DNA from: Escherichia coli
GTDB lineage: Bacteria > Pseudomonadota > Gammaproteobacteria > Enterobacterales > Enterobacteriaceae
Assembly: GCF_009931435.1 (NCBI RefSeq)
Contig: NZ_CP043414.1
Reading direction: 5' to 3' (one strand)
DNA length: 64,000 bases
Positions within the stretch are counted from its first letter, which is position 1, and every line of letters begins with the position of its first letter. The translations under genes were made by a program, and so were the position numbers. Below, piece by piece: positions 36,308-55,629 of this stretch. The notes beneath the pieces are model-generated. The model searched no databases. It was not told the DNA's origin and saw only the letters and a program-made list of their open reading frames with translations.

Positions 36308-37087
36308 ATGCAAACCATCACCATCGCCCCACCCAAGCGCAGCTGGTTCTCGATCTTCAGCTGGGCCGTTGTTCTCGCCGTACTGGTCGTCTCGTGGCAG
36401 GGCGCGGAAATGGCCCCGCTCACGCTGATTAAAGACGGCGGCAACATGGCGACGTTCGCCGCCGACTTCTTCCCGCCCGATTTCAGCCAGTGGCAGGATT
36501 ACCTCACCGAAATGGCCGTCACGCTGCAAATCGCCGTCTGGGGCACTGCGCTGGCAGTCGTTCTCTCCATCCCCTTCGGCCTGATGAGCGCCGAAAACCT
36601 GGTGCCGTGGTGGGTTTACCAGCCCGTTCGCCGCCTGATGGACGCCTGCCGCGCCATTAACGAGATGGTCTTCGCCATGCTGTTCGTGGTCGCCGTCGGT
36701 CTCGGTCCGTTCGCTGGCGTACTGGCGCTGTTTATCCACACCACCGGCGTGCTCTCCAAACTGCTTTCCGAAGCGGTAGAAGCAATTGAACCCGGCCCGG
36801 TGGAAGGTATTCGCGCCACTGGTGCCAACAAGCTCGAAGAGATCCTCTATGGCGTGCTGCCGCAGGTGATGCCGCTGCTGATCTCCTACTCCCTCTATCG
36901 CTTCGAATCCAACGTCCGTTCGGCCACCGTTGTTGGCATGGTCGGCGCTGGCGGGATCGGCGTCACGCTGTGGGAAGCGATTCGCGGTTTCCAGTTCCAG
37001 CAAACCTGCGCCCTGATGGTGCTGATTATCGTCACGGTCAGCCTGCTGGATTTCCTCTCTCAACGGTTGCGTAAGCACTTTATCTGA
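36308..37087 (+). CDS. phnE: Phosphonate ABC transporter permease, intact reading frame
   Basis: Uninterrupted 259-aa polytopic membrane ORF matching PhnE. Confidence 0.9.
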
Positions 37088-37107
37088 TAAGCGAGGCATT
37101 GATAGCT

Positions 37108-37833: not shown

Positions 37834-38286
37834 ATGCACGCAGATACCGCGACCCGCCAGCACTGGATGTCCGTGCTGGCGCACAGCCAACCGGCTGAAC
37901 TGGCTAACCGCCTTAAAGCGCTAAACATCACCGCCGACTATGACATGATCCGCGCCGCCGAAACCGGCCTGGTACAGATTCAGGCGCGAATGGGTGGCAC
38001 CGGCGAACGCTTTTTTGCTGGCGACGCTACGCTCACCCGCGCCGCTGTACGCCTTACTGACGGCACGCTCGGCTACAGCTGGGTGCTGGGGCGCGACAAA
38101 CAGCACGCCGAACGCTGCGCGCTGATTGACGCGCTGATGCAGCAATCTCGCCACTTTCAAAACTTATCAGAAACCCTTATTGCCCCGCTGGACGCTGACC
38201 GTATGGCACGCATTGCCGCACGCCAGGCCGAAGTGAACGCCAGTCGGGTCGACTTCTTTACGATGGTTCGCGGAGACAACGCATGA
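37834..38286 (+). CDS. phnG: C-P lyase core complex subunit PhnG
   Basis: 150-aa ORF starting immediately after the phnF stop (tgaATG). Confidence 0.9.
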
Positions 38287-38867
38287 CCCTGGAAACCGCT
38301 TTTATGCTTCCCGTGCAGGATGCCCAGCACAGTTTTCGTCGCCTGTTAAAGGCCATGAGCGAGCCGGGCGTGATTGTCGCCCTGCATCAACTCAAACGCG
38401 GCTGGCAGCCGCTGAATATCGCCACCACCAGCGTGCTGCTGACGCTGGCCGATAACGACACGCCGGTGTGGCTTTCTGCGCCATTAAGTAACGATATCGT
38501 CAGCCAGAGCCTGCGTTTTCATACCAACGCGCCGCTGGTCAATCAGCCGGAACAGGCGACCTTCGCAGTGACGGATGAGGCGATTGCCAGCGAGCAGCTC
38601 AACGCCCTTTCCATCGGCACCGCCGTTGCGCCGGAAGCCGGTGCGACGTTGATTTTACAGGTCACCAGCCTGAGCGGCGGACGCATGCTGCGCCTCACCG
38701 GCGCGGGTATTGCCGAAGAACGGATGATCGCCCCGCAACTGCCGGAGTGCATTCTGCACGAACTCACCGAGCGCCCGCACCCGTTCCCGCTCGGCATCGA
38801 CCTGATCCTGACCTGCGGCGAGCGCCTGCTGGCTATCCCGCGAACCACTCATGTGGAGGTGTGCTGA
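38283..38867 (+). CDS. phnH: C-P lyase core complex subunit PhnH
   Basis: 194-aa ORF with 4-nt overlap to phnG. Confidence 0.9.
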
Positions 38868-39931
38868 TGTACGTTGCCGTGAAAGGGGGCGAAAAGGCGA
38901 TCGACGCCGCCCACGCCCTGCAAGAGAGCCGACGCCGGGGCGATACTGATTTGCCTGAACTGAGCGTCGCCCAGATTGAACAGCAGCTTAATCTCGCGGT
39001 GGATCGCGTGATGACCGAAGGCGGCATTGCCGACCGTGAACTGGCGGCACTAGCGCTGAAACAGGCCAGCGGCGATAACGTTGAAGCGATTTTCCTGTTG
39101 CGCGCCTACCGCACGACGCTGGCAAAGCTGGCGGTGAGCGAGCCGCTCGACACCACCGAGATGCGGCTCGAACGCCGTATTTCGGCGGTTTATAAAGACA
39201 TTCCCGGCGGCCAGTTGCTTGGCCCGACCTACGACTACACCCATCGCCTGCTCGATTTCACCCTGCTGGCGAATGGCGAAGCGCCGACGCTGACCACCGC
39301 CGACAGCGAGCAAGCCCCATCGCCGCACGTTTTCAGCCTGCTGGCGCGTCAGGGGCTGGCGAAGTTTGAAGAGGATAGCGGCGCACAGCCGGACGACATC
39401 ACCCGCACGCCGCCGGTTTACCCCTGCTCACGTTCTTCCCGTTTGCAGCAGCTCATGCGCGGAGACGAAGGCTATTTGCTGGCGCTGGCCTACTCCACCC
39501 AGCGTGGTTACGGACGCAATCACCCGTTCGCAGGCGAAATCCGCAGTGGCTATATCGACGTGTCTATTGTGCCGGAAGAGCTGGGATTTGCGGTGAACAT
39601 CGGCGAACTGCTGATGACCGAGTGTGAAATGGTCAACGGTTTTATCGACCCGCCGGATGAGCCGCCGCACTTCACGCGCGGCTACGGGCTGGTGTTCGGC
39701 ATGAGCGAGCGCAAAGCGATGGCAATGGCGCTGGTTGACCGCGCTCTACAAGCCCCGGAGTACGGCGAGCACGCGACAGGCCCGGCGCAGGATGAAGAGT
39801 TCGTGCTGGCGCATGCCGACAACGTCGAAGCCGCAGGCTTTGTCTCGCACCTCAAACTCCCGCACTACGTCGATTTCCAGGCCGAACTGGAGCTACTCAA
39901 ACGTCTGCAACAGGAGCAGAACCATGGCTAA
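38867..39931 (+). CDS. phnI: C-P lyase subunit PhnI (ribose-1-methylphosphonate 5-triphosphate synthase component)
   Basis: 354 aa from the ATG at 38867 ([16 protein letters not shown]...), overlapping the phnH stop; the ORF-track start at 38747 is an extension. Confidence 0.9.
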   Translation: MYVAVKGGEKAIDAAHALQESRRRGDTDLPELSVAQIEQQLNLAVDRVMTEGGIADRELAALALKQASGDNVEAIFLLRAYRTTLAKLAVSEPLDTTEMRLERRISAVYKDIPGGQLLGPTYDYTHRLLDFTLLANGEAPTLTTADSEQAPSPHVFSLLARQGLAKFEEDSGAQPDDITRTPPVYPCSRSSRLQQLMRGDEGYLLALAYSTQRGYGRNHPFAGEIRSGYIDVSIVPEELGFAVNIGELLMTECEMVNGFIDPPDEPPHFTRGYGLVFGMSERKAMAMALVDRALQAPEYGEHATGPAQDEEFVLAHADNVEAAGFVSHLKLPHYVDFQAELELLKRLQQEQNHG

Positions 39932-40769
39932 TCTGAGCGGCTACAACTTTGCCTACCTCGACGAGCAGACCAAACGTATGATCCGCCGCGCCATCTTAAA
40001 AGCGGTGGCGATCCCCGGTTATCAGGTGCCGTTTGGCGGGCGCGAGATGCCGATGCCATACGGCTGGGGAACTGGTGGTATCCAGCTTACCGCCAGCGTG
40101 ATTGGCGAAAGCGACGTGTTGAAGGTGATTGACCAGGGCGCGGATGACACCACCAACGCCGTATCAATTCGCAACTTTTTCAAGCGCGTGACCGGGGTAA
40201 ACACCACTGAACGTACGGATGATGCGACGCTTATCCAGACGCGCCACCGCATCCCCGAAACGCCGCTGACCGAAGATCAGATCATTATTTTCCAGGTGCC
40301 GATCCCCGAACCGCTGCGCTTTATCGAGCCGCGCGAAACGGAGACCCGCACTATGCACGCGCTGGAGGAGTACGGCGTGATGCAGGTGAAACTGTATGAA
40401 GATATCGCCCGCTTCGGTCATATCGCCACCACCTACGCCTATCCGGTGAAGGTGAACGGACGCTACGTAATGGACCCATCGCCGATCCCGAAATTTGATA
40501 ACCCGAAAATGGACATGATGCCCGCCCTGCAACTGTTTGGCGCGGGGCGCGAGAAGCGTATTTATGCGGTGCCGCCGTTTACCCGCGTGGAAAGCCTCGA
40601 TTTCGACGATCATCCGTTCACCGTTCAGCAGTGGGATGAACCCTGCGCCATCTGCGGATCGACCCACAGCTATCTCGATGAAGTGGTGCTGGATGACGCC
40701 GGAAACCGCATGTTTGTCTGTTCCGATACCGATTATTGCCGCCAACAGAGCGAGGCGAAAAGCCAATGA
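39924..40769 (+). CDS. phnJ: C-P lyase PhnJ (radical-SAM-dependent C-P bond cleavage enzyme)
   Basis: 281 aa from the ATG at 39924 (MANLSGYNFAYLDEQTKRMIRR...); C-terminal Cys cluster CxxC...C...C. Confidence 0.9.
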   Translation: MANLSGYNFAYLDEQTKRMIRRAILKAVAIPGYQVPFGGREMPMPYGWGTGGIQLTASVIGESDVLKVIDQGADDTTNAVSIRNFFKRVTGVNTTERTDDATLIQTRHRIPETPLTEDQIIIFQVPIPEPLRFIEPRETETRTMHALEEYGVMQVKLYEDIARFGHIATTYAYPVKVNGRYVMDPSPIPKFDNPKMDMMPALQLFGAGREKRIYAVPPFTRVESLDFDDHPFTVQQWDEPCAICGSTHSYLDEVVLDDAGNRMFVCSDTDYCRQQSEAKSQ

Positions 40770-41524
40770 ATCAACCGTTACTTTCGGTCAATAACCTGAC
40801 CCACCTCTACGCACCGGGCAAAGGCTTCAGCGACGTTTCTTTTGATTTATGGCCGGGGGAAGTGCTGGGCATCGTCGGGGAATCCGGTTCCGGGAAGACC
40901 ACGCTGCTGAAATCAATCTCCGCGCGCCTGACGCCGCAGCAGGGGGAGATTCGCTATGAAAACCGTTCCCTCTATGGCATGAGCGAAGCCGACCGCCGCC
41001 GTTTACTGCGCACCGAATGGGGCGTGGTACATCAGCATCCGCTCGACGGCCTGCGTCGCCAGGTCTCGGCAGGCGGCAATATCGGCGAACGGCTGATGGC
41101 GACCGGGGCGCGTCATTACGGCGATATTCGCGCCACCGCGCAGAAGTGGCTGGAAGAGGTGGAGATTCCCGCCAACCGGATCGACGACCTGCCGACCACT
41201 TTTTCCGGCGGTATGCAGCAGCGTTTGCAGATTGCCCGCAACCTGGTGACGCATCCGAAGCTGGTGTTTATGGATGAACCGACCGGCGGGCTGGATGTAT
41301 CAGTGCAAGCGCGCCTGCTCGATCTGCTGCGCGGTCTGGTGGTGGAGCTGAACCTGGCGGTGGTGATTGTCACCCACGATCTGGGCGTCGCCCGCCTGCT
41401 GGCGGACCGTTTGCTGGTGATGAAGCAAGGGCAAGTGGTGGAGAGTGGGTTAACCGACCGCGTGCTCGACGACCCGCATCACCCGTATACCCAGCTGCTG
41501 GTGTCATCGGTTTTGCAGAATTGA
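40766..41524 (+). CDS. phnK: C-P lyase-associated ABC-type ATPase PhnK
   Basis: 252 aa from the ATG at 40766 (MNQPLLSVNNL...); Walker A GESGSGKTT. Confidence 0.9.
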   Translation: MNQPLLSVNNLTHLYAPGKGFSDVSFDLWPGEVLGIVGESGSGKTTLLKSISARLTPQQGEIRYENRSLYGMSEADRRRLLRTEWGVVHQHPLDGLRRQVSAGGNIGERLMATGARHYGDIRATAQKWLEEVEIPANRIDDLPTTFSGGMQQRLQIARNLVTHPKLVFMDEPTGGLDVSVQARLLDLLRGLVVELNLAVVIVTHDLGVARLLADRLLVMKQGQVVESGLTDRVLDDPHHPYTQLLVSSVLQN

Positions 41525-41535
41525 GCCTTGCTTGT

Positions 41536-41690
41536 GTCGGGTGGCGCTGCGCTTACCCGACCTACGGTACATGTAGGCCGGATAAGGCGTAGCCGCCATC
41601 CGGCTTATCAGGCCTACAAAACCATCGTAATACATTGATATTGATTCATTTGTAGGCCGGATAAGGCGCAGCCGCCATCCGGCAAAAACA
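41536..41690. repeat. BIME/REP cluster inside the phn operon, between phnK and phnL
   Basis: Tandem/inverted copies of gtaggccggataaggcg...ccgccatccggc and ttatcaggcctac REP motifs. Confidence 0.85.
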
Positions 41691-41703
41691 CGAAGAGGCC
41701 AAA

Positions 41704-42384
41704 ATGATCCGCGTCGAAAACGTCAGTAAAACCTTCATCCTGCACCAACAAAACGGCGTGCGCCTGCCCGTCTTACAACGCGCCTCGCTCACCGTCAACG
41801 CGGGCGAATGCGTGGTGCTCCACGGCCATTCCGGCAGCGGCAAATCAACCCTGCTGCGCTCGCTGTACGCTAACTATCTGCCCGACGAAGGGCAAATTCA
41901 GATCAAACATGGTGACGAGTGGGTAGACCTGGTCACCGCGCCAGCGCGCAAAGTGGTGGAAATCCGCAAAACCACCGTCGGCTGGGTGAGCCAGTTTCTG
42001 CGGGTCATCCCGCGTATTTCGGCGCTGGAAGTGGTAATGCAGCCGCTGCTCGATACCGGCGTTCCGCGTGAAGCCTGCGCCGCTAAAGCCGCCCGTCTGC
42101 TCACCCGCCTGAACGTGCCGGAACGTCTGTGGCACCTGGCGCCATCGACCTTCTCCGGCGGCGAACAGCAGCGCGTCAACATCGCGCGCGGCTTTATCGT
42201 CGATTACCCCATTCTGCTGCTCGACGAACCTACTGCCTCGCTGGACGCCAAAAACAGCGCCGCGGTGGTGGAACTGATCCGCGAAGCTAAAACCCGCGGC
42301 GCAGCCATCGTCGGCATCTTCCACGACGAAGCCGTACGCAATGACGTCGCCGACCGCCTCCACCCAATGGGAGCCTCTGCATGA
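41704..42384 (+). CDS. phnL: C-P lyase-associated ABC-type ATPase PhnL
   Basis: 226-aa ORF with Walker [10 protein letters not shown]. Confidence 0.9.
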
Positions 42385-43517
42385 TTATCAATAACGTCAA
42401 ACTGGTGCTGGAAAACGAAGTGGTACACGGTTCGCTGGAGGTGCAGGACGGCGAAATTCGCGCCTTTGCCGAAAGCCAGAGCCGCCTGCCAGAAGCGATG
42501 GACGGCGAAGGTGGCTGGCTGCTGCCGGGGCTGATTGAGCTGCATACCGACAACCTCGATAAATTCTTCACTCCGCGCCCGAAAGTGGACTGGCCTGCCC
42601 ACTCAGCGATGAGCAGCCACGACGCGCTGATGGTGGCGAGCGGCATCACCACGGTGCTGGATGCCGTGGCGATTGGCGACGTGCGCGACGGCGGCGATCG
42701 GCTGGAGAATCTGGAGAAGATGATCAACGCCATCGAAGAGACGCAGAAACGCGGGGTCAACCGCGCCGAGCACCGTCTGCACCTGCGCTGTGAACTGCCG
42801 CATCACACTACGCTGCCGCTGTTTGAAAAACTGGTGCAGCGCGAGCCGGTCACGCTGGTGTCGCTGATGGACCACTCGCCGGGCCAGCGCCAGTTCGCCA
42901 ATCGCGAGAAGTATCGCGAATATTACCAGGGCAAATACTCGCTCACCGATGCGCAGATGCAGCAGTACGAAGAGGAACAACTGGCGCTTGCCGCACGCTG
43001 GTCGCAGCCGAATCGCGAAACCATCGCCGCAATATGCCGCGCGCGACAAATTGCCCTCGCCAGCCACGATGATGCTACGCACGAGCACGTTGCCGAATCC
43101 CACCAGCTTGGCAGCGTAATCGCCGAATTTCCCACCACGTTCGAAGCGGCGGAAGCTTCGCGCAAGCATGGCATGAATGTATTGATGGGCGCGCCGAATA
43201 TTGTGCGCGGCGGTTCGCACTCCGGCAACGTGGCGGCAAGCGAACTGGCACAGCTTGGCCTGCTGGATATCCTCTCTTCCGACTACTACCCCGCCAGCCT
43301 GCTCGATGCGGCATTTCGCGTCGCCGATGACGAGAGCAACCGCTTTACGCTGCCGCAGGCGGTGAAGCTGGTGACTAAAAATCCGGCGCAGGCGCTTAAT
43401 CTTCAGGATCGCGGGGTGATTGGCGAGGGCAAACGCGCCGACCTGGTGCTGGCGCATCGCAAGGGCAACCACATTCATATCGATCACGTCTGGCGTCAGG
43501 GTAAAAGGGTGTTCTGA
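42381..43517 (+). CDS. phnM: PhnM, amidohydrolase-family ribosyl-methylphosphonate triphosphate diphosphatase
   Basis: 378-aa ORF with 4-nt overlap to phnL; matches PhnM. Confidence 0.9.
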
Positions 43518-44074
43518 TGACGGGAAAACTGATTTGGTTAATGGGGGCCTCTGGCTCCGGAAAAGACAGTCTGTTGACGGAACTCCGCCAGCGGGAACAA
43601 ACTCAGCTACTGGTAGCGCATCGCTACATCACGCGCGCCGCCAGCGCCGGAAGTGAAAACCATATCGCCCTGAGCGAGCAGGAGTTTTTTACCCGCGCGG
43701 GGCAGAACCTTCTGGCCTTAAGCTGGCACGCCAACGGCCTGTATTATGGCATCGGCGTCGAGATTGACCTCTGGCTACACGCCGGATTCGACGTGGTGGT
43801 CAACGGCTCACGCGCGCATTTGCCGCAGGCGCGGGCGCGCTATCAATCGGCTCTGCTGCCTATCTGTTTACAGGTGTCACCGGAGATCCTGCGCCAGCGT
43901 CTGGAAAACCGTGGTCGTGAAAATGCCAGTGAAATTAACGCCCGGCTGGCGCGCGCTGCCCGCTATACTCCTCAGGATTGTCTTACGCTCAATAATGACG
44001 GCAGCCTGCGCCAGTCGGTCGACAAGCTGCTGACGCTGATTCATCAGAAGGAGAAACACCATGCCTGCTTGTGA
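43517..44074 (+). CDS. phnN: Ribose 1,5-bisphosphate phosphokinase PhnN
   Basis: 185-aa ORF with P-loop GASGSGKDS; overlaps the phnM stop. Confidence 0.9.
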
Positions 44075-44495
44075 GCTTCGTCCGGCCACGCAGTACGACA
44101 CCGACGCGGTTTACGCGCTGATTTGTGAGCTAAAACAGGCGGAGTTTGACCACCATGCGTTTCGCGTGGGCTTTAACGCCAACCTGCGCGACCCGAACAT
44201 GCGCTACCATCTGGCGCTGCTGGAAGGCGAAGTTGTCGGCATGATCGGCCTGCATTTGCAGTTTCATCTGCATCATGTCAACTGGATCGGCGAAATTCAG
44301 GAACTGGTGGTGATGCCGCAGGCGCGCGGTCTGAACGTCGGCAGTAAATTACTGGCATGGGCCGAAGAAGAAGCCCGCCAGGCCGGGGCCGAAATGACCG
44401 AGCTTTCCACCAACGTCAAGCGCCACGACGCGCACCGTTTCTATCTGCGCGAAGGCTACGAGCAGAGCCACTTCCGCTTCACCAAGGCGCTGTAA
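44061..44495 (+). CDS. phnO: Aminoalkylphosphonate N-acetyltransferase PhnO (GNAT)
   Basis: 144-aa ORF overlapping phnN by 14 nt. Confidence 0.9.
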
Positions 44496-44496
44496 C

Positions 44497-45255
44497 ATGA
44501 GCCTGACCCTCACACTTACTGGCACTGGCGGCGCACAGGGTGTTCCCGCATGGGGCTGTGAGTGCGCGGCCTGCGCCAGAGCGCGGCGCTCACCGCAGTA
44601 TCGCCGCCAGCCATGCAGCGGCGTCGTGAAGTTTAACGACGCGATCACCCTGATCGACGCCGGACTGCACGATCTCGCCGATCGCTGGTCGCCCGGATCG
44701 TTCCAGCAGTTTTTGCTGACGCACTACCATATGGATCACGTGCAGGGGCTGTTTCCGCTGCGCTGGGGCGTGGGCGATTCGATCCCGGTCTACGGCCCGC
44801 CGGATGAACAGGGCTGCGACGATCTGTTTAAACATCCGGGCCTGCTTGATTTCAGCCACACGGTGGAGCCATTTGTGATGTTTGATTTGCAGGGATTACA
44901 GGTCACGCCGCTGCCGCTCAACCATTCGAAACTCACTTTCGGCTATCTACTGGAAACGGCACATAGCCGGGTGGCGTGGCTGTCTGACACCGCAGGCCTG
45001 CCGGAAAAAACGGTGAAATTTTTATGCAATAATCAGCCACAGGTAATGGTGATTGATTGCTGCCACCCACCGCGCGCGAATTCGCCACGCAATCACTGTG
45101 ATTTAAACACCGTGCTGGCGCTGAATGAAGTTATCCGCTCGCCGTGCGTGGTTCTGACACATATCAGCCATCAGTTTGATGCGTGGCTGATGGAGAACAT
45201 ACTGCCGTCAGGGTTTGAGGCGGGGTTTGATGGGATGGAGATTGGGGTGGAGTGA
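44497..45255 (+). CDS. phnP: Metallo-beta-lactamase-fold cyclic phosphodiesterase PhnP
   Basis: 252-aa ORF with HxHxDH motif ([10 protein letters not shown]). Confidence 0.9.
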
Positions 45256-45289
45256 TGGGTGAGGGGCGATGCCTGCTCTAAACTCAACA

Positions 45290-45598
45290 TCACCGCCCAT
45301 ACTCATCTTCCATTCTCCGCTCTTCATCTTCTAGCTGCCGACGCTCCTGATCCAGCTGGCGCTGGCGATCGTCCAGCTGCCTGCGGCGATCTTCATATTG
45401 TCTGCGCCGATCGTCGTTCACTTCACGCTGCCAGCCGTCGTCGCGCCAATCTTCATAGTCTCGCCCACGGTCAGGGTTATAAGCATCGTTAATCGCCTGC
45501 TGAATATTGCCAATGGTGTCGTCGATAATATCGGCCTGGGCCGGAACGGTGGACAGCGTGAGCAGGGTGAATAAAAGAAATAGCGGAAAACGTTTCAT
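45290..45598 (-). CDS. yjdP: Small secreted low-complexity protein YjdP (Arg/Asp/Glu/Gln-rich)
   Basis: 102-aa ORF with signal peptide (MKRFPLFLLFTLLTLSTVPAQA) and charged repeats (RRRQYEDRRRQLDDRQRQLDQERRQLEDEE). Confidence 0.8.
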   Translation of the reverse strand: MKRFPLFLLFTLLTLSTVPAQADIIDDTIGNIQQAINDAYNPDRGRDYEDWRDDGWQREVNDDRRRQYEDRRRQLDDRQRQLDQERRQLEDEERRMEDEYGR

Positions 45599-45666
45599 TA
45601 GCCAACCTCAAAAAGAAACTCTATCCACATTAGTCATTACTCATCCATGCAAGTAGTGGATGAATC

Positions 45667-45984
45667 TCAATTTTTCCGCTGCTCTATTGCCGTAATCGCC
45701 TCCACGCGTTGTTGATGACGACCGCCTTCGTACTGCGCGCCCAGCCACGCATCCACAATCATTTTTGCCAGTTCGAGGCCAACCACTCGTGAACCAAAAG
45801 CCAGTGCAACTTCACTGGCGTAATGCGGATAATCAGTGCGCTCTGACGACCTGGTTTCTTTATCAATCCCCTCACTCATTGACCATGAATAAAAGGCTGG
45901 CACAGCAACGCAGAATCCTGCGGTGCCAGCGACATGACCGCCCATTGCTCCGGTACGTTTTTTAATAAGAAACACCGGTTGCAT
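45667..45984 (-). pseudogene. rpiB: rpiB-like remnant: the C-terminal ~45 residues and a short N-proximal block match ribose-5-phosphate isomerase B, but the central part is missing and the N-terminus is diverged
   Basis: Translation ...ETRSSERTDYPHYASEVALAFGSRVVGLELAKMIVDAWLGAQYEGGRHQQRVEAITAIEQRKN matches RpiB segments as I recall them, but the ORF is 105 aa against ~149 aa for RpiB, with no match to the central catalytic region. Confidence 0.55.
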
Positions 45985-46236
45985 TGATTAATTGTGCTCA
46001 GTATTTGCCGAAGTACAATATATATAATAAATATATAAAACACCTCATATTATTTACAGAGATAATAAATTCGCGTACTTTTCCCTCTTCAGCACAAATG
46101 CCTAATAAAATGGCTCGTTCCGCTCACACTTCCACTTATTAAAATCGCAATTTCCCAATTATGATAACGCCAGCTTTAAATGACGTATTTTGCATGGATT
46201 ACATATTTACGACACAAATGATAAATGGAGATTTAT

Positions 46237-48222
46237 ATGAATAACTCTCGGTTATTCCGTTTGAGCAGGATTGTTATTGCGTTAACTGCCGCCAGCGGCA
46301 TGATGGTAAATACCGCTCACGCAACAGATGAAGCGAAAGCCGCCACTCAATATACCCAACAGGTTAATCAGAATTACGCCAAATCATTACCGTTTAGCGA
46401 TCGTCAGGATTTTGACGATGCCCAGCGCGGATTTATCGCCCCGCTGCTGGATGAAGGTATTCTGCGCGATGCGAATGGCAAAGTTTACTACCGCGCGAAT
46501 GATTACAAATTTGATATTAATGCCGCTGCGCCGGAAACCGTAAACCCCAGCCTGTGGCGTCAGTCGCAGATCAACGGCATTTCTGGTCTGTTCAAAGTCA
46601 CCGATAAAATGTATCAGGTGCGCGGCCAGGATATCTCTAACATTACATTCGTTGAGGGCGAGAAAGGCATTATTGTTATCGACCCACTGGTGACGCCGCC
46701 TGCCGCAAAAGCCGCACTTGACCTTTACTTCCAGCATCGTCCGCAAAAACCGATTGTTGCTGTTATTTACACCCACAGCCACGCCGACCATTATGGCGGT
46801 GTGAAAGGCATTATCTCTGAAGCGGATGTTAAATCTGGCAAAGTGCAGGTGATCGCTCCGGCAGGCTTTATGGACGAAGCCATCAGCGAAAACGTGCTGG
46901 CGGGTAACATCATGAGCCGCCGTGCGCTCTACTCTTACGGTCTGTTACTGCCGCACAACGCGCAAGGCAACGTGGGCAACGGCCTGGGCGTGACGCTGGC
47001 AACGGGCGACCCGAGCATTATTGCGCCAACCAAAACGATTGTCAGAACTGGCGAGAAGATGATTATCGACGGCCTGGAGTTTGACTTCCTGATGACTCCG
47101 GGTAGCGAAGCGCCAGCCGAAATGCACTTCTATATTCCGGCCCTGAAAGCCCTGTGTACCGCCGAAAACGCCACGCATACCCTGCACAACTTCTACACCC
47201 TGCGCGGCGCGAAAACCCGCGATACCAGCAAGTGGACAGAGTATCTGAACGAAACGCTGGATATGTGGGGTAACGACGCGGAAGTACTGTTTATGCCGCA
47301 CACCTGGCCGGTCTGGGGCAATAAGCATATCAATGATTATATTGGTAAATATCGCGATACTATCAAATACATTCACGACCAGACCCTGCACCTGGCGAAC
47401 CAGGGTTACACCATGAATGAAATTGGCGACATGATTAAGCTGCCACCTGCGCTTGCCAATAACTGGGCCAGCCGCGGCTATTACGGTTCTGTTAGCCACA
47501 ACGCCCGTGCAGTGTATAACTTCTATCTCGGCTATTATGACGGCAATCCAGCTAACCTACATCCGTACGGTCAGGTGGAGATGGGCAAACGTTACGTGAA
47601 AGCGCTGGGCGGTTCCGCCCGTGTCATCAACCTGGCGCAAGAAGCGAACAAGCAAGGGGATTACCGCTGGTCAGCAGAGTTGCTGAAACAGGTGATTGCC
47701 GCCAATCCGGGTGACCAGGTGGCGAAGAATCTGCAAGCGAATAACTTTGAACAGCTGGGCTATCAGGCCGAGTCCGCCACCTGGCGCGGTTTCTACCTGA
47801 CCGGCGCAAAAGAGCTGCGCGAAGGGGTGCATAAGTTCAGCCACGGCACCACGGGTTCTCCGGACACCCTTCGCGGGATGTCGGTCGAAATGCTGTTCGA
47901 CTTTATGGCCGTTCGCCTCGATAGCGCGAAAGCCGCAGGTAAGAATATCAGCCTGAACTTCAATATGAGCAACGGCGATAACCTCAACCTGACGCTGAAC
48001 GATAGCGTGCTTAACTACCGTAAAACGCTGCAACCTGAAGCCAACGCCTCTTTCTACATCAGCCGTGAAGATCTTCACGCCGTGCTGACCGGACAAGCCA
48101 AAATGGCGGATCTGGTAAAAGCGAAGAAAGCCAAAATTATTGGCAATGGCGCGAAACTGGAAGAAATTATTGCCTGTCTGGATAATTTCGATTTGTGGGT
48201 GAATATCGTAACCCCAAATTAA
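46237..48222 (+). CDS. yjcS: Putative alkyl/aryl sulfatase (metallo-beta-lactamase fold) YjcS
   Basis: 661 aa from the ATG at 46237 ([29 protein letters not shown], signal peptide); HxHxDH motif ([10 protein letters not shown]). Confidence 0.9.
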
Positions 48223-48229
48223 TGCCACT

Positions 48230-48270
48230 CACTTTTGGGGGCGCTTAAGCCCCCAAAAGTATTTATTTTA
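48230..48270 (+). terminator. Rho-independent terminator after yjcS
   Basis: cttttgggggc / gcccccaaaag inverted repeat followed by a T-rich tract (tatttatttt). Confidence 0.65.
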
Positions 48271-48430
48271 AAAATACATACAACCAATTAATACATAAAA
48301 TATATAAGTTATGAATGCGGTGGCTGAATAAAGCTATTTTTATTCATCGAGAAAATAGCCATACTGACGCCTTCAATGGATATTGATATTCACTACAGAT
48401 ATTGTTCGCAGCAGACAGGATGTATTTAAT

Positions 48431-48706
48431 ATGCCAACAGTTCTCTCTCGCATGGCGATGCAACTCAAAAAAACAGCCTGGATAATTCCCGTCTTCATGG
48501 TTTCGGGATGCTCATTATCTCCGGCAATCCCGGTGATCGGCGCTTATTATCCCAGCTGGTTTTTCTGCGCCATTGCCAGCCTTATTTTGACGCTCATCAC
48601 GAGGCGAATTATTCAGCGGGCAAATATCAATCTGGCATTTGTCGGAATTATTTATACCGCCCTTTTTGCTCTCTACGCCATGCTGTTCTGGCTGGCATTT
48701 TTCTAA
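48431..48706 (+). CDS. ytcA: Small lipoprotein-like membrane protein YtcA
   Basis: 91 aa from the ATG at 48431 (MPTVLSRMAMQLKKTAWIIPVFMVSGCSL...), lipobox-like SGC; directly upstream of mdtN. Confidence 0.75.
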   Translation: MPTVLSRMAMQLKKTAWIIPVFMVSGCSLSPAIPVIGAYYPSWFFCAIASLILTLITRRIIQRANINLAFVGIIYTALFALYAMLFWLAFF

Positions 48707-48724
48707 TCTATTTGAGACGCGCTC

Positions 48725-49756
48725 ATGGAAAGTACGCCGAAAAAAGCTCCTCGCAGTAAATTCCCTGCTCTGTTAGTGGTTGCGTTGGCGCTGGTTGCCC
48801 TTGTTTTCGTTATCTGGCGCGTAGACAGTGCGCCATCAACTAATGACGCCTACGCGTCAGCAGATACCATTGATGTGGTGCCGGAAGTCAGCGGTCGCAT
48901 TGTAGAACTGGCGGTCACCGACAACCAGGCGGTGAAACAGGGCGATTTGCTGTTCCGCATCGACTCGCGCCCGTACGAAGCCAATCTGGCGAAAGCCGAA
49001 GCCTCCCTCGCGGCGCTGGATAAGCAAATTATGCTCACCCAGCGTAGCGTTGACGCACAACAGTTTGGTGCCGACTCGGTTAATGCCACGGTAGAAAAAG
49101 CCCGTGCCGCCGCGAAACAGGCCAGTGATACATTACGCCGCACCGAGCCATTACTGAAAGAAGGTTTCGTCTCAGCGGAAGACGTTGACCGTGCAAGAAC
49201 GGCGCAGCGCGCCGCAGAAGCAGATCTTAATGCCGTATTGTTGCAGGCGCAGTCAGCCGCCAGCGCCGTCAGCGGCGTGGATGCGCTGGTGGCGCAACGT
49301 GCGGCAGTGGAAGCGGATATTGCGTTGACGAAACTGCATCTGGAAATGGCGACCGTTCGCGCGCCGTTTGATGGCCGAGTCATTTCCCTCAAAACCTCGG
49401 TTGGGCAATTTGCTTCTGCCATGCGCCCTATTTTCACCCTAATCGACACTCGTCACTGGTACGTGATCGCCAACTTCCGCGAAACCGATCTGAAAAATAT
49501 TCGCTCGGGTACACCCGCAACGATTCGCCTGATGAGCGACAGCGGCAAAACCTTCGAGGGTAAAGTGGATTCGATTGGCTACGGCGTGCTACCGGATGAC
49601 GGCGGTCTGGTGCTGGGCGGCCTGCCGAAAGTGTCTCGTTCTATTAACTGGGTCCGCGTTGCCCAGCGTTTTCCGGTCAAAATCATGGTTGAAAAACCTG
49701 ACCCGGAAATGTTCCGCATCGGCGCTTCGGCAGTCGCTAATCTTGAGCCGCAATAA
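48725..49756 (+). CDS. mdtN: Efflux pump membrane-fusion (periplasmic adaptor) protein
   Basis: 343-aa ORF with N-terminal TM anchor and coiled-coil; matches MdtN. Confidence 0.9.
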   Translation: MESTPKKAPRSKFPALLVVALALVALVFVIWRVDSAPSTNDAYASADTIDVVPEVSGRIVELAVTDNQAVKQGDLLFRIDSRPYEANLAKAEASLAALDKQIMLTQRSVDAQQFGADSVNATVEKARAAAKQASDTLRRTEPLLKEGFVSAEDVDRARTAQRAAEADLNAVLLQAQSAASAVSGVDALVAQRAAVEADIALTKLHLEMATVRAPFDGRVISLKTSVGQFASAMRPIFTLIDTRHWYVIANFRETDLKNIRSGTPATIRLMSDSGKTFEGKVDSIGYGVLPDDGGLVLGGLPKVSRSINWVRVAQRFPVKIMVEKPDPEMFRIGASAVANLEPQ

Positions 49757-51807
49757 TGAGCGCGCTCAACTCCCTGCCATTACCGGTGGTCAGGCTGCTG
49801 GCGTTCTTTCATGAAGAGTTAAGCGAGCGGCGACCAGGCCGCGTGCCGCAGACTATGCAACTCTGGGTAGGCTGCTTGCTGGTGATTCTGATCTCGATGA
49901 CTTTTGAGATCCCTTTTGTGGCGTTATCACTGGCAGTGCTGTTTTACGGTATTCAGTCGAACGCGTTTTACACCAAATTTGTCGCGATCTTGTTTGTGGT
50001 CGCCACGATGCTGGAAATCGCCAGCCTGTTTTTGATCTACAAATGGTCATATGGCGAACCGTTGATCCGATTGATCATTGCCGGACCGATCCTGATGGGC
50101 TGTATGTTTTTGATGCGCACCCATCGGTTGGGGCTGGTCTTTTTCGCCGTCGCCATTGTCGCTATTTACGGGCAAACCTTCCCCGCCATGCTCGACTATC
50201 CGGAAGTGGTCGTGCGCTTAACGCTGTGGTGTATCGTTGTCGGCCTCTACCCGACGTTATTGATGACGTTAATCGGCGTGCTGTGGTTTCCCAGCCGTGC
50301 TATCACGCAGATGCATCAGGTGCTTAATGATCGGCTTGATGATGCCATTAGCCACCTGACGGACAGCCTCGCACCGCTACCCGAAACGCGGATTGAAAGA
50401 GAGGCGCTGGCGCTGCAAAAACTCAATGTCTTTTGCCTCGCGGACGATGCCAACTGGCGAACTCAGAGCGCATGGTGGCAAAGCTGCGTGGCAACGGTAA
50501 CCTACATTTACTCGACGCTGAATCGCTACGATCCCACCTCTTTTGCTGATTCTCAGGCAATTATTGAATTTCGGCAAAAATTAGCCTCAGAAATCAACAA
50601 ACTGCAGCATGCCATTGCCGAAGGTCAGCGCTGGCAAAGCGACTGGCGGATCACTGAAAGTGAAGCGATGGCGGCACGGGAATGTAACCTGGAGAATATC
50701 TGCCAGACATTGTTGCAACTGGGTCAGATGGACCCAAATACGCCGCCAACGCCCGCCGCCAAACCGCCATCAATGGTCGCCGATGCTTTTACCAATCCAG
50801 ACTATATGCGCTACGCGGTAAAAACGCTGCTCGCCTGTTTGATCTGTTACACCTTCTACAGCGGCGTGGACTGGGAAGGCATTCACACCTGTATGCTGAC
50901 CTGCGTGATCGTCGCTAACCCCAATGTCGGTTCGTCGTACCAGAAGATGGTGTTGCGTTTTGGCGGGGCTTTTTCCGGCGCAATTCTGGCGCTGTTATTC
51001 ACGCTACTGGTCATGCCCTGGCTGGACAATATTGTCGAATTGCTATTTGTGCTGGCACCGATTTTCCTGTTAGGCGCATGGATTGCCACCAGCTCTGAAC
51101 GCTCTTCTTATATCGGCACACAGATGGTGGTCACCTTCGCGCTCGCCACGCTCGAAAACGTTTTTGGCCCGGTGTACGACCTGGTGGAAATTCGCGATCG
51201 CGCCCTGGGTATCATCATTGGTACCGTGGTGTCCGCGGTGATTTACACCTTTGTCTGGCCTGAAAGTGAAGCGCGCACACTGCCGCAAAAACTGGCTGGC
51301 GCGCTGGGTATGTTGAGTAAAGTAATGCGGATCCCACGCCAGCAGGAAGTCACGGCTCTGCGCACTTATCTGCAAATTCGTATAGGTCTGCATGCGGCGT
51401 TTAATGCCTGTGAAGAGATGTGCCAACGCGTGGCGCTGGAGCGTCAACTGGACAGCGAAGAACGCGCGTTACTGATTGAACGTTCGCAAACGGTTATTCG
51501 TCAGGGCCGCGATATTCTTCACGCCTGGGATGCAACCTGGAACTCGGCGCAGGCGCTGGATAACGCACTACAGCCGGACAGAGCAGGCCTGTTTGCCGAC
51601 GCACTGGAGAAATACGCCGCCGGCCTGGCAAGCGCATTCAGTCGTTCTCCTCAAATAACGCTTGAAGAAACACCCGCCTCGCAGGCCATTCTGCCGACCT
51701 TATTAAAACAGGAGCAACACGTCTGCCAGCTTTTCGCCCGCTTGCCAGACTGGACAGCCCCGGCATTAACGCCCGCCACGGAACAGGCACAAGGAGCCAC
51801 GCAATGA
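49756..51807 (+). CDS. mdtO: Efflux pump inner-membrane component (FUSC/aromatic acid exporter family)
   Basis: 683-aa polytopic membrane ORF overlapping the mdtN stop; matches MdtO. Confidence 0.9.
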   Translation: MSALNSLPLPVVRLLAFFHEELSERRPGRVPQTMQLWVGCLLVILISMTFEIPFVALSLAVLFYGIQSNAFYTKFVAILFVVATMLEIASLFLIYKWSYGEPLIRLIIAGPILMGCMFLMRTHRLGLVFFAVAIVAIYGQTFPAMLDYPEVVVRLTLWCIVVGLYPTLLMTLIGVLWFPSRAITQMHQVLNDRLDDAISHLTDSLAPLPETRIEREALALQKLNVFCLADDANWRTQSAWWQSCVATVTYIYSTLNRYDPTSFADSQAIIEFRQKLASEINKLQHAIAEGQRWQSDWRITESEAMAARECNLENICQTLLQLGQMDPNTPPTPAAKPPSMVADAFTNPDYMRYAVKTLLACLICYTFYSGVDWEGIHTCMLTCVIVANPNVGSSYQKMVLRFGGAFSGAILALLFTLLVMPWLDNIVELLFVLAPIFLLGAWIATSSERSSYIGTQMVVTFALATLENVFGPVYDLVEIRDRALGIIIGTVVSAVIYTFVWPESEARTLPQKLAGALGMLSKVMRIPRQQEVTALRTYLQIRIGLHAAFNACEEMCQRVALERQLDSEERALLIERSQTVIRQGRDILHAWDATWNSAQALDNALQPDRAGLFADALEKYAAGLASAFSRSPQITLEETPASQAILPTLLKQEQHVCQLFARLPDWTAPALTPATEQAQGATQ

Positions 51808-53270
51808 TCAATCGTCAACTTTCACGCCTGCTGTTGTGCAGCATTCTCGGCAGCACGACGCTGATTTCCGGCTGTGCCCTGGTACGTAAGGATTCTGCGC
51901 CTCATCAACAGCTCAAACCGGAACAAATCAAACTGGCCGATGATATTCATCTTGCCAGCTCCGGTTGGCCGCAGGCGCAGTGGTGGAAACAACTCAATGA
52001 CCCGCAGTTGGATGCTTTGATCCAACGGACGCTAAGTGGTTCACACACCCTCGCCGAAGCGAAACTGCGGGAAGAAAAAGCGCAGTCGCAGGCCGATTTG
52101 TTAGATGCCGGTTCACAATTACAGGTCGCAGCGTTAGGGATGCTCAACCGCCAACGTGTCTCGGCGAACGGCTTTTTAAGCCCTTATGCTATGGATGCGC
52201 CAGCACTGGGTATGGACGGGCCGTACTATACGGAAGCCACAGTCGGTTTGTTTGCCGGACTGGATCTTGATTTGTGGGGTGTGCATCGCTCAGCGGTTGC
52301 CGCCGCCATTGGCGCGCATAATGCAGCGCTGGCAGAAACCGCAGCAGTAGAGCTATCGCTGACCACGGGCGTAGCGCAGCTTTATTACAGTATGCAGGCC
52401 AGCTATCAGATGCTCGATCTGTTAGAACAAACTCGCGATGTGATTGATTACGCGGTGAAAGCGCACCAGAGCAAAGTGGCGCACGGCCTGGAAGCGCAAG
52501 TGCCTTTCCACGGCGCGCGGGCGCAGATTCTGGCGGTCGATAAACAAATTGCTGCCGTTAAAGGGCAAATCACCGAAACGCGAGAATCTCTGCGTGCATT
52601 GATTGGCGCAGGAGCCAGCGATATGCCGGAGATCAAAGCGGTGGCATTACCGCAAGTCCAGACCGGTATTCCGGCGACACTCTCTTATGAGTTGCTCGCC
52701 AGACGCCCGGATCTGCAAGCCATGCGTTGGTATGTTCAGGCGTCATTAGATCAGGTGGATTCCGCGCGGGCGCTGTTCTACCCGAGCTTTGATATCAAAG
52801 CATTTTTCGGCCTTGATGCCATCCACCTGGATACCTTATTCAAAAAAACCAGTCGCCAGTTCAATTTCATTCCTGGTCTGAAATTACCGCTGTTTGATGG
52901 TGGACGGTTGAATGCCAATCTCGAAGGCACGCGCGCCGCCAGCAACATGATGATTGAACGTTACAACCAGTCAGTACTGAATGCGGTGCGCGACGTTGCA
53001 GTCAACGGCACGCGTCTGCAAACGCTCAACGACGAGCGGGAGATGCAGGCAGAACGCGTAGAAGCAACGCGCTTCACCCAGCGCGCTGCCGACGCCGCCT
53101 ACCAACGAGGCTTAACCAGTCGCTTACAGGCCACCGAAGCCCAGTTGCCGGTGCTTGCCGAAGAGATGTCATTACTGATGCTGGACAGCCGCCGGGTGAT
53201 CCAAAGCATTCAGTTGATGAAATCGCTGGGTGGCGGGTATCAGGCGGCTCCCGTCGTCGAGAAAAAATAA
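51804..53270 (+). CDS. mdtP: Efflux pump outer-membrane factor lipoprotein
   Basis: 488-aa ORF with lipoprotein signal (LISGCALV); OMF/TolC-like; 4-nt overlap with mdtO. Confidence 0.9.
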   Translation: MINRQLSRLLLCSILGSTTLISGCALVRKDSAPHQQLKPEQIKLADDIHLASSGWPQAQWWKQLNDPQLDALIQRTLSGSHTLAEAKLREEKAQSQADLLDAGSQLQVAALGMLNRQRVSANGFLSPYAMDAPALGMDGPYYTEATVGLFAGLDLDLWGVHRSAVAAAIGAHNAALAETAAVELSLTTGVAQLYYSMQASYQMLDLLEQTRDVIDYAVKAHQSKVAHGLEAQVPFHGARAQILAVDKQIAAVKGQITETRESLRALIGAGASDMPEIKAVALPQVQTGIPATLSYELLARRPDLQAMRWYVQASLDQVDSARALFYPSFDIKAFFGLDAIHLDTLFKKTSRQFNFIPGLKLPLFDGGRLNANLEGTRAASNMMIERYNQSVLNAVRDVAVNGTRLQTLNDEREMQAERVEATRFTQRAADAAYQRGLTSRLQATEAQLPVLAEEMSLLMLDSRRVIQSIQLMKSLGGGYQAAPVVEKK

Positions 53271-53399
53271 AATGTCAGCCGCGTGATGGCTGTCACGCGG
53301 TATTTCGTTTCGTCACGTCAAAACTGACGACAGCCTGTTTTTCGTCAGAGTTTTGAACAAATAGTGCCCGTAATATCAGGGAATGACCCCAAATAAAAT

Positions 53400-53416
53400 G
53401 TGGCATAAAAGATGCA
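53400..53416 (+). promoter_or_regulatory. Sigma54 (-24/-12) promoter of fdhF
   Basis: TGGCATaaaagaTGCAT matches the TGGCAC-N5-TTGCA consensus, about 50 bp upstream of the fdhF ATG; upstream repeats (gtcaaaactgacga ... cgtcagagttttgaac) are consistent with an FhlA UAS. Confidence 0.6.
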
Positions 53417-53467
53417 TACTGTAGTCGAGAGCGCGTATGCGTGATTTGATTAACTGGAGCGAGACCG

Positions 53468-55615
53468 ATGAAAAAAGTCGTCACGGTTTGCCCCTATTGC
53501 GCATCAGGTTGCAAAATCAACCTGGTCGTCGATAACGGCAAAATCGTCCGGGCGGAGGCAGCGCAGGGCAAAACCAACCAGGGTACCCTGTGTCTGAAGG
53601 GGTATTATGGCTGGGATTTCATTAACGATACCCAGATCCTGACCCCGCGCCTGAAAACCCCCATGATTCGTCGCCAGCGTGGCGGCAAACTCGAACCTGT
53701 TTCCTGGGATGAGGCACTGAATTACGTTGCCGAGCGCCTGAGCGCCATCAAAGAGAAGTACGGTCCGGATGCCATCCAGACGACCGGCTCCTCGCGTGGT
53801 ACGGGTAACGAAACCAACTATGTAATGCAAAAATTTGCGCGCGCCGTTATTGGTACCAATAACGTTGATTGCTGCGCTCGTGTCTGACACGGCCCATCGG
53901 TTGCAGGTCTGCACCAATCGGTCGGTAATGGCGCAATGAGCAATGCTATTAACGAAATTGATAATACCGATTTAGTGTTCGTTTTCGGGTACAACCCGGC
54001 GGATTCCCACCCTATCGTGGCGAATCACGTAATTAACGCTAAACGTAACGGGGCGAAAATTATCGTCTGCGATCCGCGCAAAATTGAAACCGCGCGCATT
54101 GCTGACATGCACATTGCACTGAAAAACGGCTCGAATATCGCGCTGTTGAATGCAATGGGCCATGTCATTATTGAAGAAAATCTGTACGACAAAGCGTTCG
54201 TCGCTTCCCGTACAGAAGGCTTTGAAGAGTATCGTAAAATCGTTGAAGGCTACACGCCAGAGTCGGTTGAAGATATCACCGGCGTCAGCGCCAGTGAGAT
54301 TCGTCAGGCGGCGCGGATGTATGCCCAGGCGAAAAGCGCCGCCATCCTGTGGGGCATGGGTGTAACCCAGTTCTACCAGGGCGTGGAAACCGTGCGTTCT
54401 CTGACCAGCCTCGCGATGCTGACCGGTAACCTCGGTAAGCCGCATGCGGGTGTAAACCCGGTTCGTGGGCAAAACAACGTGCAGGGTGCCTGCGATATGG
54501 GCGCGCTGCCAGATACTTACCCTGGCTACCAGTACGTGAAAGATCCGGCTAACCGCGAGAAATTCGCCAAAGCCTGGGGTGTAGAGAGTCTGCCAGCACA
54601 TACCGGTTATCGCATCAGCGAGCTACCGCATCGCGCAGCGCATGGTGAAGTGCGTGCCGCGTACATTATGGGCGAAGATCCGCTACAAACTGACGCGGAG
54701 CTGTCGGCAGTACGTAAAGCCTTTGAAGATCTGGAACTGGTCATCGTTCAGGACATCTTTATGACCAAAACCGCGTCGGCGGCGGATGTCATTTTACCGT
54801 CAACGTCGTGGGGCGAGCATGAAGGCGTGTTTACTGCGGCTGACCGTGGCTTCCAGCGTTTCTTCAAAGCAGTTGAACCGAAATGGGATCTGAAAACGGA
54901 CTGGCAGATTATCAGTGAAATCGCCACCCGTATGGGTTATCCGATGCACTACAACAACACCCAGGAGATCTGGGATGAGTTGCGTCATCTGTGCCCGGAT
55001 TTCTACGGTGCGACTTACGAGAAAATGGGCGAACTGGGCTTCATTCAGTGGCCTTGTCGCGATACTTCAGATGCCGATCAGGGGACTTCTTATCTGTTTA
55101 AAGAGAAGTTTGATACTCCGAACGGTCTGGCGCAGTTCTTCACCTGCGACTGGGTAGCGCCAATCGACAAACTCACCGACGAGTATCCGATGGTACTGTC
55201 AACGGTGCGTGAAGTCGGTCACTACTCTTGCCGTTCGATGACCGGTAACTGTGCGGCACTGGCGGCGCTGGCTGATGAACCTGGCTACGCACAAATCAAT
55301 ACCGAAGACGCCAAACGTCTGGGTATTGAAGATGAGGCATTGGTTTGGGTGCACTCGCGTAAAGGCAAAATTATCACCCGTGCGCAGGTCAGCGATCGTC
55401 CGAACAAAGGGGCGATTTACATGACCTACCAGTGGTGGATTGGTGCCTGTAACGAGCTGGTTACCGAAAACTTAAGCCCGATTACGAAAACGCCGGAATA
55501 CAAATACTGCGCCGTGCGCGTCGAGCCGATCGCCGATCAGCGCGCCGCCGAGCAGTACGTGATTGACGAGTACAACAAGTTGAAAACTCGCCTGCGCGAA
55601 GCGGCACTGGCGTAA
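53468..55615 (+). CDS. fdhF: Formate dehydrogenase H (selenocysteine- and molybdopterin-containing); in-frame UGA at 53885-53887 decoded as Sec
   Basis: Two ORF-track fragments (53468-53887, 53936-55615) are in the same frame and joined by a single TGA; flanking sequence ...NNVDCCARV-U-HGPSVAGLHQSVGNGAMSNAINE... matches FdhF around Sec140. Confidence 0.95.
53885..53932 (+). promoter_or_regulatory. SECIS stem-loop directing SelB-dependent selenocysteine insertion at the fdhF UGA
   Basis: UGA followed immediately by cacggcccatcggttgcaggtctgcaccaatcggtcggtaatggcg, matching the canonical fdhF SECIS hairpin (loop GGUC). Confidence 0.9.
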
Positions 55616-55629
55616 TACAGTCCTTTCTA

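Follow-up and report, generated by a model that had tools for sequence, protein, structure and literature searches.

A probable deletion scar of the D-allose regulon between yjdP and yjcS in Escherichia coli

We provide evidence that the short interval between yjdP and yjcS in the analysed window (a 64-kb stretch of Escherichia coli DNA) is the scar of a deletion of the D-allose regulon rpiB-alsRBACEK, fixed and without function, a reading to which we assign a probability of roughly 0.9. An als-carrying ancestor would have undergone two separate deletions, in either order. A deletion of 6,557 bp would have taken out alsR, the genes of the AlsBAC transporter, AlsE and AlsK as well as the promoter and start of rpiB, and a 159-bp in-frame deletion within rpiB would have occurred by slippage or recombination between CTGGCT(G/T)TTG repeats. 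The outcome would be an accidental 105-codon open reading frame (ORF) that starts in antisense non-coding DNA, runs into two rpiB fragments and is subject to neutral decay. In E. coli and Shigella the yjdP-yjcS slot commonly occurs in three states, of which the scar is one.

Anatomy of the yjdP-yjcS interval

Both rpiB and the als regulon have long been known from K-12. For E. coli K-12 the D-allose regulon rpiB-alsRBACEK goes back to Kim et al. (1997) and Poulsen et al. (1999), as cited in PMC2808357. It occupies the same yjdP-yjcS slot, and both rpiB blocks of the remnant as well as the alsK terminator are orthologous to it. The local gene order in the window is phnM-N-O-P, yjdP, a short gap and then yjcS-ytcA-mdtN. 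An initial annotation of this DNA had put the gap at about 640 bp, against a block of 7 to 8 kb containing rpiB and the als genes in K-12; the measured values are exactly 638 bp (45599-46236) and, for the corresponding gap in the K-12-type genome L003, 7,270 bp (rpiB on the minus strand, then alsR-alsB-alsA-alsC-alsE-alsK on the plus strand). The comparison with the K-12-type locus that the same annotation proposed was carried out by BLAST and multiple alignment against L003, and it resolves the anatomy of the interval into collinear pieces of the rpiB 3' end, an internal rpiB block and the alsK stop and terminator. The features are as follows.

45290..45598, minus strand: yjdP (DDRRRQL-repeat protein, 102 aa), intact left flank of the scar, from the ORF list, the L003 alignment and RefSeq orthologues
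45599..45666, no strand: yjdP-rpiB spacer of 68 bp, equal in length to the K-12-type spacer and collinear with L003 10364-10431
45667..45984, minus strand: 105-codon remnant ORF, made up of 37 de novo codons, RpiB 29-51, RpiB 105-149 and a stop, from the ORF list and alignments
45667..45804, minus strand: rpiB 3' block, codons 105-149 plus stop, 136/138 identical to K-12 by alignment
45795..45804, minus strand: junction 1, the single remaining CTGGCT(G/T)TTG copy, from the overlap of BLAST blocks and the multiple alignment
45805..45874, minus strand: rpiB 5'-proximal block, codons 29-51, 62/70 identical to K-12, matching rpiB sense nt 84-153
45875..45882, no strand: junction 2, an 8-bp filler (CTCATTGA) in place of 6,557 bp (L003 10799-17355), from BLAST and alignment to L003
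45883..45934, plus strand: homologue of the alsK stop codon and downstream terminator hairpin, 41/52 identical to K-12, matching L003 17356-17407
45935..46012, no strand: 78-bp orphan segment without L003 counterpart, source of the ORF's ATG (45982-45984) and first ~16 codons
46013..46236, plus strand: yjcS upstream region, common to all alleles, from alignment across alleles
46237..48222, plus strand: yjcS (alkyl sulfatase), intact right flank, from the ORF list and RefSeq

On the left, window positions 45257-45804 align to L003 10001-10569 and span yjdP, the spacer and rpiB codons 105-149. The yjdP gene is here one 21-bp repeat unit shorter than its K-12-type counterpart (109 aa), as seen from a 21-bp gap in the L003 alignment. 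On the right, positions 46013-46300 align to L003 17409-17697 at 94%, covering the yjcS upstream region and start. The yjcS start at 46237 is the PGAP/RefSeq choice, and another ATG lies upstream at 46225. The length bookkeeping closes: 7,270 - 159 - 6,557 + 8 + 78 - 2 = 638.

Compared with K-12 the window is short of 6,716 bp (159 + 6,557) and has no transporter, kinase, epimerase, regulator or active isomerase of this system. The initial annotation had made its claim depend on the als genes being absent from the rest of the window as well. This is borne out: neither blastn with a 6.8-kb K-12 segment nor tblastn with the seven proteins finds them elsewhere in the 64 kb, and the other tblastn matches in the window are ABC-ATPase paralogues of AlsA only (about 27-30% identity).

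Junctions and origin of the interval

Junction 1 corresponds to a 159-bp in-frame loss of RpiB residues 52-104 (53 codons, where the initial annotation had estimated some 50 central residues). The loss is flanked by the direct repeats CTGGCTGTTG and CTGGCTTTTG (9/10 identical, 6 exact), which sit 159 bp apart in intact rpiB, at sense nt 154-163 and 313-322. At junction 2 the missing DNA amounts to 6,557 bp, with one end within rpiB codon 28 and the other three bases short of the alsK stop: rpiB codons 1-27, the rpiB-alsR intergenic region and alsR-alsK are gone, and the rpiB promoter went with them. Here the alignment to L003 reveals no microhomology or repeat but the 8-bp filler instead. Of the short direct repeats that the initial annotation proposed to look for at the breakpoints, one pair is seen at junction 1, with its CTGGCT(G/T)TTG motif, and none was detected at junction 2.

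To the right of the filler, the terminator homologue has exchanged its outermost stem pair on both sides, from T-A to C-G. The adjoining 78-bp orphan segment is found in scar genomes only; nothing in K-12-type DNA, E. whittamii, the divergent Escherichia or any of 80 outgroup loci matches it. An Rfam scan of the interval gives no match.

One candidate source of the orphan segment was considered. A MAFFT alignment suggests some resemblance to the right end of the sugar island found at this slot in O157:H7 (the response-regulator promoter and start, MQPVFLI against MKPVVLV). The resemblance is not significant in a permutation test (50/2000) and other pieces of the island scored as high, so that a link to the island is not established. 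A 73% identical 'wHTH' fragment (H115) sits in an unrelated pathogenicity island. The 158-aa protein P0002 was considered as an intermediate carrying the large deletion only. In its gene, the central 159 bp and codon 49 resemble those of modern intact E. coli alleles, and its contig comes from a 2.8x metagenome assembly and ends 15 bp upstream of the gene. We regard it as a recombinant or a chimera, and it is therefore uninformative on the order of the two deletions.

The initial annotation left a choice between a deletion scar and an ancestral empty site with a decayed rpiB. In the latter case yjdP and yjcS would originally have been adjacent, als would have been inserted later in the K-12 lineage, and the rpiB-like ORF would be unrelated or independently decayed. 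It might be argued in favour of this that the slot is a replacement hotspot: O157:H7 has a different 9-kb sugar island there, and all three alleles end on the right within about 4 bp of each other (window 46013-46017). Against it, the order phnP-rpiB-alsR-alsB-alsA-alsC-alsE-alsK is kept in 9/9 outgroup loci from six genera. The loci with the complete order include E. whittamii, the divergent Escherichia SCPM-O-B-8794, Citrobacter amalonaticus and C. koseri, and likewise Cedecea davisae, Kosakonia oryziphila, Klebsiella indica and K. grimontii. In three of the outgroup loci yjdP is detectable between phnP and rpiB, and in three yjcS follows alsK. Given this conservation of the als order across outgroup loci, the occupied state is taken as ancestral and the short state as derived. 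The interval moreover holds both ends of the missing block, including the alsK stop and terminator, in the right order and orientation. Taken together with the ancestral occupied state, this identifies the interval as a deletion scar, and the probability of an original empty site is close to negligible.

The 105-codon remnant

The 105-codon ORF is very probably a pseudogene. As the initial annotation had described from the sequence, the minus-strand ORF matches RpiB in its C-terminus and in one short block, behind an N-terminus that looks unrelated. Residues 61-105 correspond to RpiB 105-149 with a single change (R148K) and residues 38-60 to RpiB 29-51, whereas residues 1-37 lack an RpiB counterpart and are read from the antisense strand of the alsK terminator and from the 78-bp orphan segment. 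The homology itself is far above chance (tblastn E = 2e-29; phmmer against PDB 1NN4 E = 8e-33, and about 1e-32 against PDB 1NN4 and 2VVR).

Nonetheless, the remnant stays below the curated NCBIfam cut-offs, with 77.0 against 138.65 bits for TIGR01120, 61.7 against 88.3 for TIGR00689 and 52.2 against 135 for NF004051; intact K-12 RpiB scores 255.7, 211.1 and 202.9, respectively. Pfam PF02502 matches the remnant over model positions 102-138 only (E = 6e-9), the match to positions 27-49 being insignificant (E = 1.7), and the remnant does not reach the length of a full RpiB/LacAB domain (about 138-145 positions). Missing are RpiB residues 1-28 and 52-104, and with them Asp9/His10, Cys66/Thr68 and His99/Asn100. 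We take Thr68, Asn100, Asp9 and His10 to be functional residues of EcRpiB, with Asp9-His10 binding substrate or phosphate. The first beta-alpha unit is gone along with residues 1-28, and the lost segments presumably also hold beta-1, beta-3 and beta-4 of the Rossmann-like alpha/beta fold of RpiB with its parallel beta-sheet. What is kept, according to the alignment, is the C-terminal helix with Arg133/His134/Arg137, which we assume to contribute to the active site of the adjoining subunit in RpiB. For EcRpiB, Cys66 is described as the catalytic base and His99 as catalytically relevant (PMC4783025). An AF2 model of the remnant has four helices and no strands at a mean pLDDT of 54 and a pTM of 0.38, although a single-sequence prediction such as this one is weak.

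In the 18 nt upstream of the ATG (ACTGAGCACAATTAATCA) there is no Shine-Dalgarno sequence. A scan finds no promoter-like site in the interval, though it is an insensitive scan that misses the yjcS promoter too, and one terminator-like hairpin, which equals the chance expectation.

An alternative is that selection keeps the ORF in about 29% of E. coli because its small product has gained a new function, perhaps as a C-terminal helix module left over from RpiB. The reading frame is indeed intact in nine of the ten sampled scar alleles, PGAP annotates it as a CDS, and the exact sequence occurs on at least 1,000 contigs. Variants that are frameshifted, shortened or deleted for 5 or 10 codons nevertheless occur, some of them on Mb-scale NCBI contigs. 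The identity to K-12 is higher in the 3' rpiB block (98.6%) than in the 5' block (88.8%; Fisher p = 0.002), which could be read as constraint on the C-terminal part, but exchange with intact alleles by recombination as far as junction 1 accounts for it equally well.

Across nine scar alleles we count 7 synonymous and 8 non-synonymous changes, giving a pN/pS of 0.36 (p = 0.06 against neutrality, over 15 segregating sites). We do not read this ratio as constraint, since it concerns only 15 sites and recombination could import pre-filtered variation of intact alleles into the 3' block; weak constraint is formally conceivable. The replacements G34E and W36R (and V30G in the haplogroup of the window) alter nucleotides that are invariant in ten intact genes from six genera, and such radical replacements at conserved positions speak against a preserved function. 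The same holds for the N-terminal third, which consists of antisense terminator and orphan DNA, for the missing Shine-Dalgarno and promoter-like sites, and for the low-confidence, strand-free model. Overall, a selected small protein is very unlikely, and we treat the ORF as a probable pseudogene.

The databases present it differently. The protein of the window ORF is RefSeq WP_001183291.1, 'RpiB/LacA/LacB family sugar-phosphate isomerase', and some sources call it 'ribose 5-phosphate isomerase B'. An identical protein is present in strains 2017-02-2CC and RMDEC465. The entry belongs to a 912-member cluster at 90%, and its contigs include records of Shigella sonnei and S. flexneri. The name implies an enzyme, whereas the sequence scores under the curated family cut-offs and is without the catalytic residues.

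Distribution, age and meaning of the scar

Among 5,426 complete E. coli genomes, full-length rpiB is present in 3,402, in all cases at least 97.6% identical to K-12, and als is retained in 63%. The scar is found in about 1,570 (29%), with 1,568 genomes matching a junction-2/orphan probe at 95% identity or more, and the O157:H7-type island in 411 (about 8%). Together the three counts (3,402, about 1,570 and 411) do not exceed 5,426, and als and the O157 island in tandem therefore cannot be a common arrangement. The island, of about 9 kb, encodes a hybrid histidine kinase, a sugar ABC transporter, a D-lyxose/D-mannose isomerase, an aldolase, a kinase and a response regulator. It uses the same yjdP-yjcS slot with the same right boundary (about window 46017), but its gene content is unrelated to als, and it is missing from the window. 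The D-lyxose isomerase of O157:H7 has been characterised as an enzyme (van Staalduinen et al. 2010, as cited in PMC6746899; PDB 3KMH).

Nine of ten sampled scar alleles have an identical 638-bp architecture with the same junctions, filler and orphan segment; BS-04 is a rare variant with an extra deletion. The sampled alleles also share the decay mutations G34(E/D) and W36R, and they form two haplogroups on differing flanking backgrounds. Given the common architecture in nine of ten alleles and the 1,568 genomes that match the probe, we conclude that the scar has a single origin. Its presence in about 1,570 complete genomes also rules out an assembly artefact. Over 20 kb the window does not exceed 98.0% identity with any complete E. 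coli genome, and the scar is also carried by its closest relatives.

One could instead suppose that the scar arose repeatedly and recently in separate lineages, with the rpiB microhomology acting as a deletion hotspot. Junction 1 does lie on a 9/10 direct repeat, the otherwise intact-type rpiB of P0030 has an independent and different internal deletion, and other independent als inactivations exist, such as an internal stop in alsC of L089. Repeated events are nonetheless hard to reconcile with two junctions, an 8-bp filler, a 78-bp orphan segment and two decay mutations that are all common to the sampled scar alleles. The interior is furthermore 11-21% diverged from every intact allele, for which a recent event cannot account. 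Recurrent deletion is thus extremely unlikely, and a single origin of the scar remains our reading.

The divergence of the interior bears on its age. The terminator homologue is 77-79% identical to the sampled intact E. coli alleles; for a 70-bp stretch that overlaps it, the identity to the divergent Escherichia locus L009 is 76%. At rpiB nt 87, 120 and 145 the scar has the state of L009. The same state is also seen at nt 120 and 145 in most of the more distant outgroups (nt 87 being mixed there), whereas K-12, E. whittamii and two intact E. coli alleles that are among the most divergent have the other state at all three sites. To the right, the ~78 bp at 46013-46090 are hypervariable and allele-linked, with at least 97.5% identity among scar alleles, 71-87% to other sampled E. 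coli alleles and 58-71% to two other Escherichia lineages. Beyond about 46090 the sampled E. coli alleles are at least 95.7% identical to the window.

The scar interior hence looks older than all intact E. coli alleles, judging from these sequence comparisons, and this appears to be the sole mildly unusual aspect of the locus. In the simplest reading, the block from junction 1 to about 46090 would preserve an old lineage together with neutral decay, the flanks being regularly exchanged; the old lineage may have been preserved because this block cannot be homogenised by recombination with intact alleles.

A more far-reaching version gives the scar and its linked block (about 45805-46090) a greater age than the last ancestor shared by today's intact E. 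coli als alleles, or has them acquired from a divergent Escherichia, such that the three slot states form a long-lived polymorphism. The L009-like sites, the distant terminator homologue, the allele-specific right-flank block and the presence of two haplogroups on different flanking backgrounds are consistent with it. It depends, however, on three informative sites and short non-coding stretches, and relaxed constraint inflates the divergence of the scar, so that we consider it a tentative possibility that is less probable than its negation. More doubtful still is its fullest form, in which an ancient allele of ~280 bp (45805-46090), older than the ancestor of the intact E. coli and E. whittamii als alleles or imported, would persist as one of three long-lived states at a hotspot where rare-sugar islands are exchanged within recombination boundaries, and in which the orphan 78 bp would be the relic of a further lost occupant.

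Much of this is already known: the als presence/absence polymorphism has been described, the remnant has a RefSeq entry, and the feature is an ordinary and common one. In enteroaggregative E. coli (EAEC) 042 the absence of als accounts for the lack of growth on allose, as shown experimentally (PMC2808357, 2010). The accessible text of that paper concerns the same presence/absence polymorphism; it describes the absence as complete and makes no mention of an rpiB remnant, junctions or an orphan segment. E. coli W has been reported to lack alsBACEK (PMC3032704), but the operon is present in the RefSeq KO11FL record. In the accessible parts of the literature we found no description of the fine structure of the scar or of the misleading database name, and these constitute a refinement rather than a discovery. 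The practical value is modest, and a specialist will find nothing surprising.

As for the biology, the strain of the window is predicted to be unable to import D-allose and break it down, a phenotype deduced here and experimentally shown for the als-negative EAEC 042. The back-up ribose-5-phosphate isomerase B would be lost, and RpiA alone is predicted to carry out ribose-5-phosphate isomerisation. The naming of an accidental ORF as a sugar-phosphate isomerase on at least 1,000 contigs is a widespread annotation error, and metabolic reconstructions that trust this name would wrongly assign RpiB activity. Finally, the three states of the yjdP-yjcS slot (als, scar or lyxose island) make it a clean marker for the population genetics of E. 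coli and Shigella, and the deeply diverged interior of the scar could serve to study how presence/absence polymorphisms persist.

Island allele and insertion sequences in the yjdP-yjcS slot

The yjdP-yjcS slot, which holds rpiB-alsRBACEK in K-12 and a deletion scar in the window, has a third allele: an island of about 9 kb in E. coli O157:H7 493/89, occupying the slot equivalent to window 45586-46016. Islands of this type are carried by 411 of 5,426 genomes, and the yjdP linked to the island shows only 88% identity to that of the window. Its position and gene content are as follows:

L007 (the 493/89 locus) 498-9639: island with genes for a hybrid sensor kinase, a sugar ABC transporter, a D-lyxose/D-mannose isomerase, a ketose-bisphosphate aldolase, a kinase and a response regulator

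IS elements are also found at the locus. IS903B lies directly upstream of yjcS in MSB1_9D (L005 5000-8019), where the entire phn-yjdP-als segment is absent and both yjcS and mdtN are pseudogenes. For KO11FL (L091 16634-18569) the 5' part of yjcS is interrupted by ISVsa5. The als operon is complete in the KO11FL record, which conflicts with the absence of alsBACEK reported in the E. coli W genome paper (PMC3032704).

Scar variants and inactivated intact alleles

Complete E. coli genomes are at most 98.0% identical to the window over the 20 kb at 36000-56000. Database records naming Shigella sonnei and S. flexneri carry the exact sequence of the 105-aa scar remnant. On these two grounds the origin of the window may be a Shigella or a poorly sampled lineage of E. 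coli.

A rare scar variant is present in E. coli BS-04 (L006 3808-4295). At its junction 2 (the breakpoint of the larger deletion, from rpiB to the alsK stop) the rpiB side is 5 bp longer and three adjacent bases differ, while a private deletion of about 100 bp takes most of the terminator homologue (the alsK stop and hairpin) together with the entire 78-bp orphan segment. The BS-04 allele may represent a deeper-branching scar lineage and not a simple derivative. A 158-aa hybrid ORF is found in the ENA metagenome contig ERZ507965 NODE_1799 (L098 1-495): the N-terminus and the decayed 5'-proximal rpiB piece (block A) are of the scar type, the central and 3' rpiB parts are of the modern intact type, and the switch falls inside a 24-nt stretch identical between both allele types. 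This ORF is either a natural recombinant of scar and intact alleles or a chimera of low-coverage (2.8x) assembly.

The als/rpiB system has also been inactivated independently in 'intact' alleles: alsC of strain 729_021014_1_4 (L089 11832-12812) contains an internal stop, and protein P0030, otherwise a K-12-type rpiB product, has lost about residues 46-104 through an in-frame internal deletion distinct from that of the scar.

Repeats, hairpin and haplotypes around the scar

Copy number of 21-bp repeat units in yjdP (7 codons, DDRRRQL-type) is variable between strains:

45290-45598: yjdP of the window, 102 aa, with a gap against K-12 at about 45396
K-12-type genomes: yjdP of 109 aa
2017-02-2CC: yjdP of 116 aa
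S22EC: yjdP of 121 aa

Largely because of this variation, the best complete-genome match to the 1,051-bp segment of the window around the scar does not surpass 98.2%.

Across the scar interval there is a single terminator-like site, a number equal to chance expectation:

45800-45819, minus strand: terminator-like motif within the remnant ORF, upstream of yjdP; an older rpiB hairpin (GCCAGTG...CACTGGC) joined by junction 1 (the 159-bp in-frame rpiB loss) to T-rich TTTTGGTT

Within E. coli, yjcS (window 46237-47136) splits into deeply diverged allelic classes. Over 46537-47136 the window's copy is about 95% identical to those of K-12 and O157 each, whereas its identity to the group-2 scar strain HH45 (L002) is only 85-86%. 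The neighbourhood as a whole has the appearance of a mosaic built from old haplotypes.
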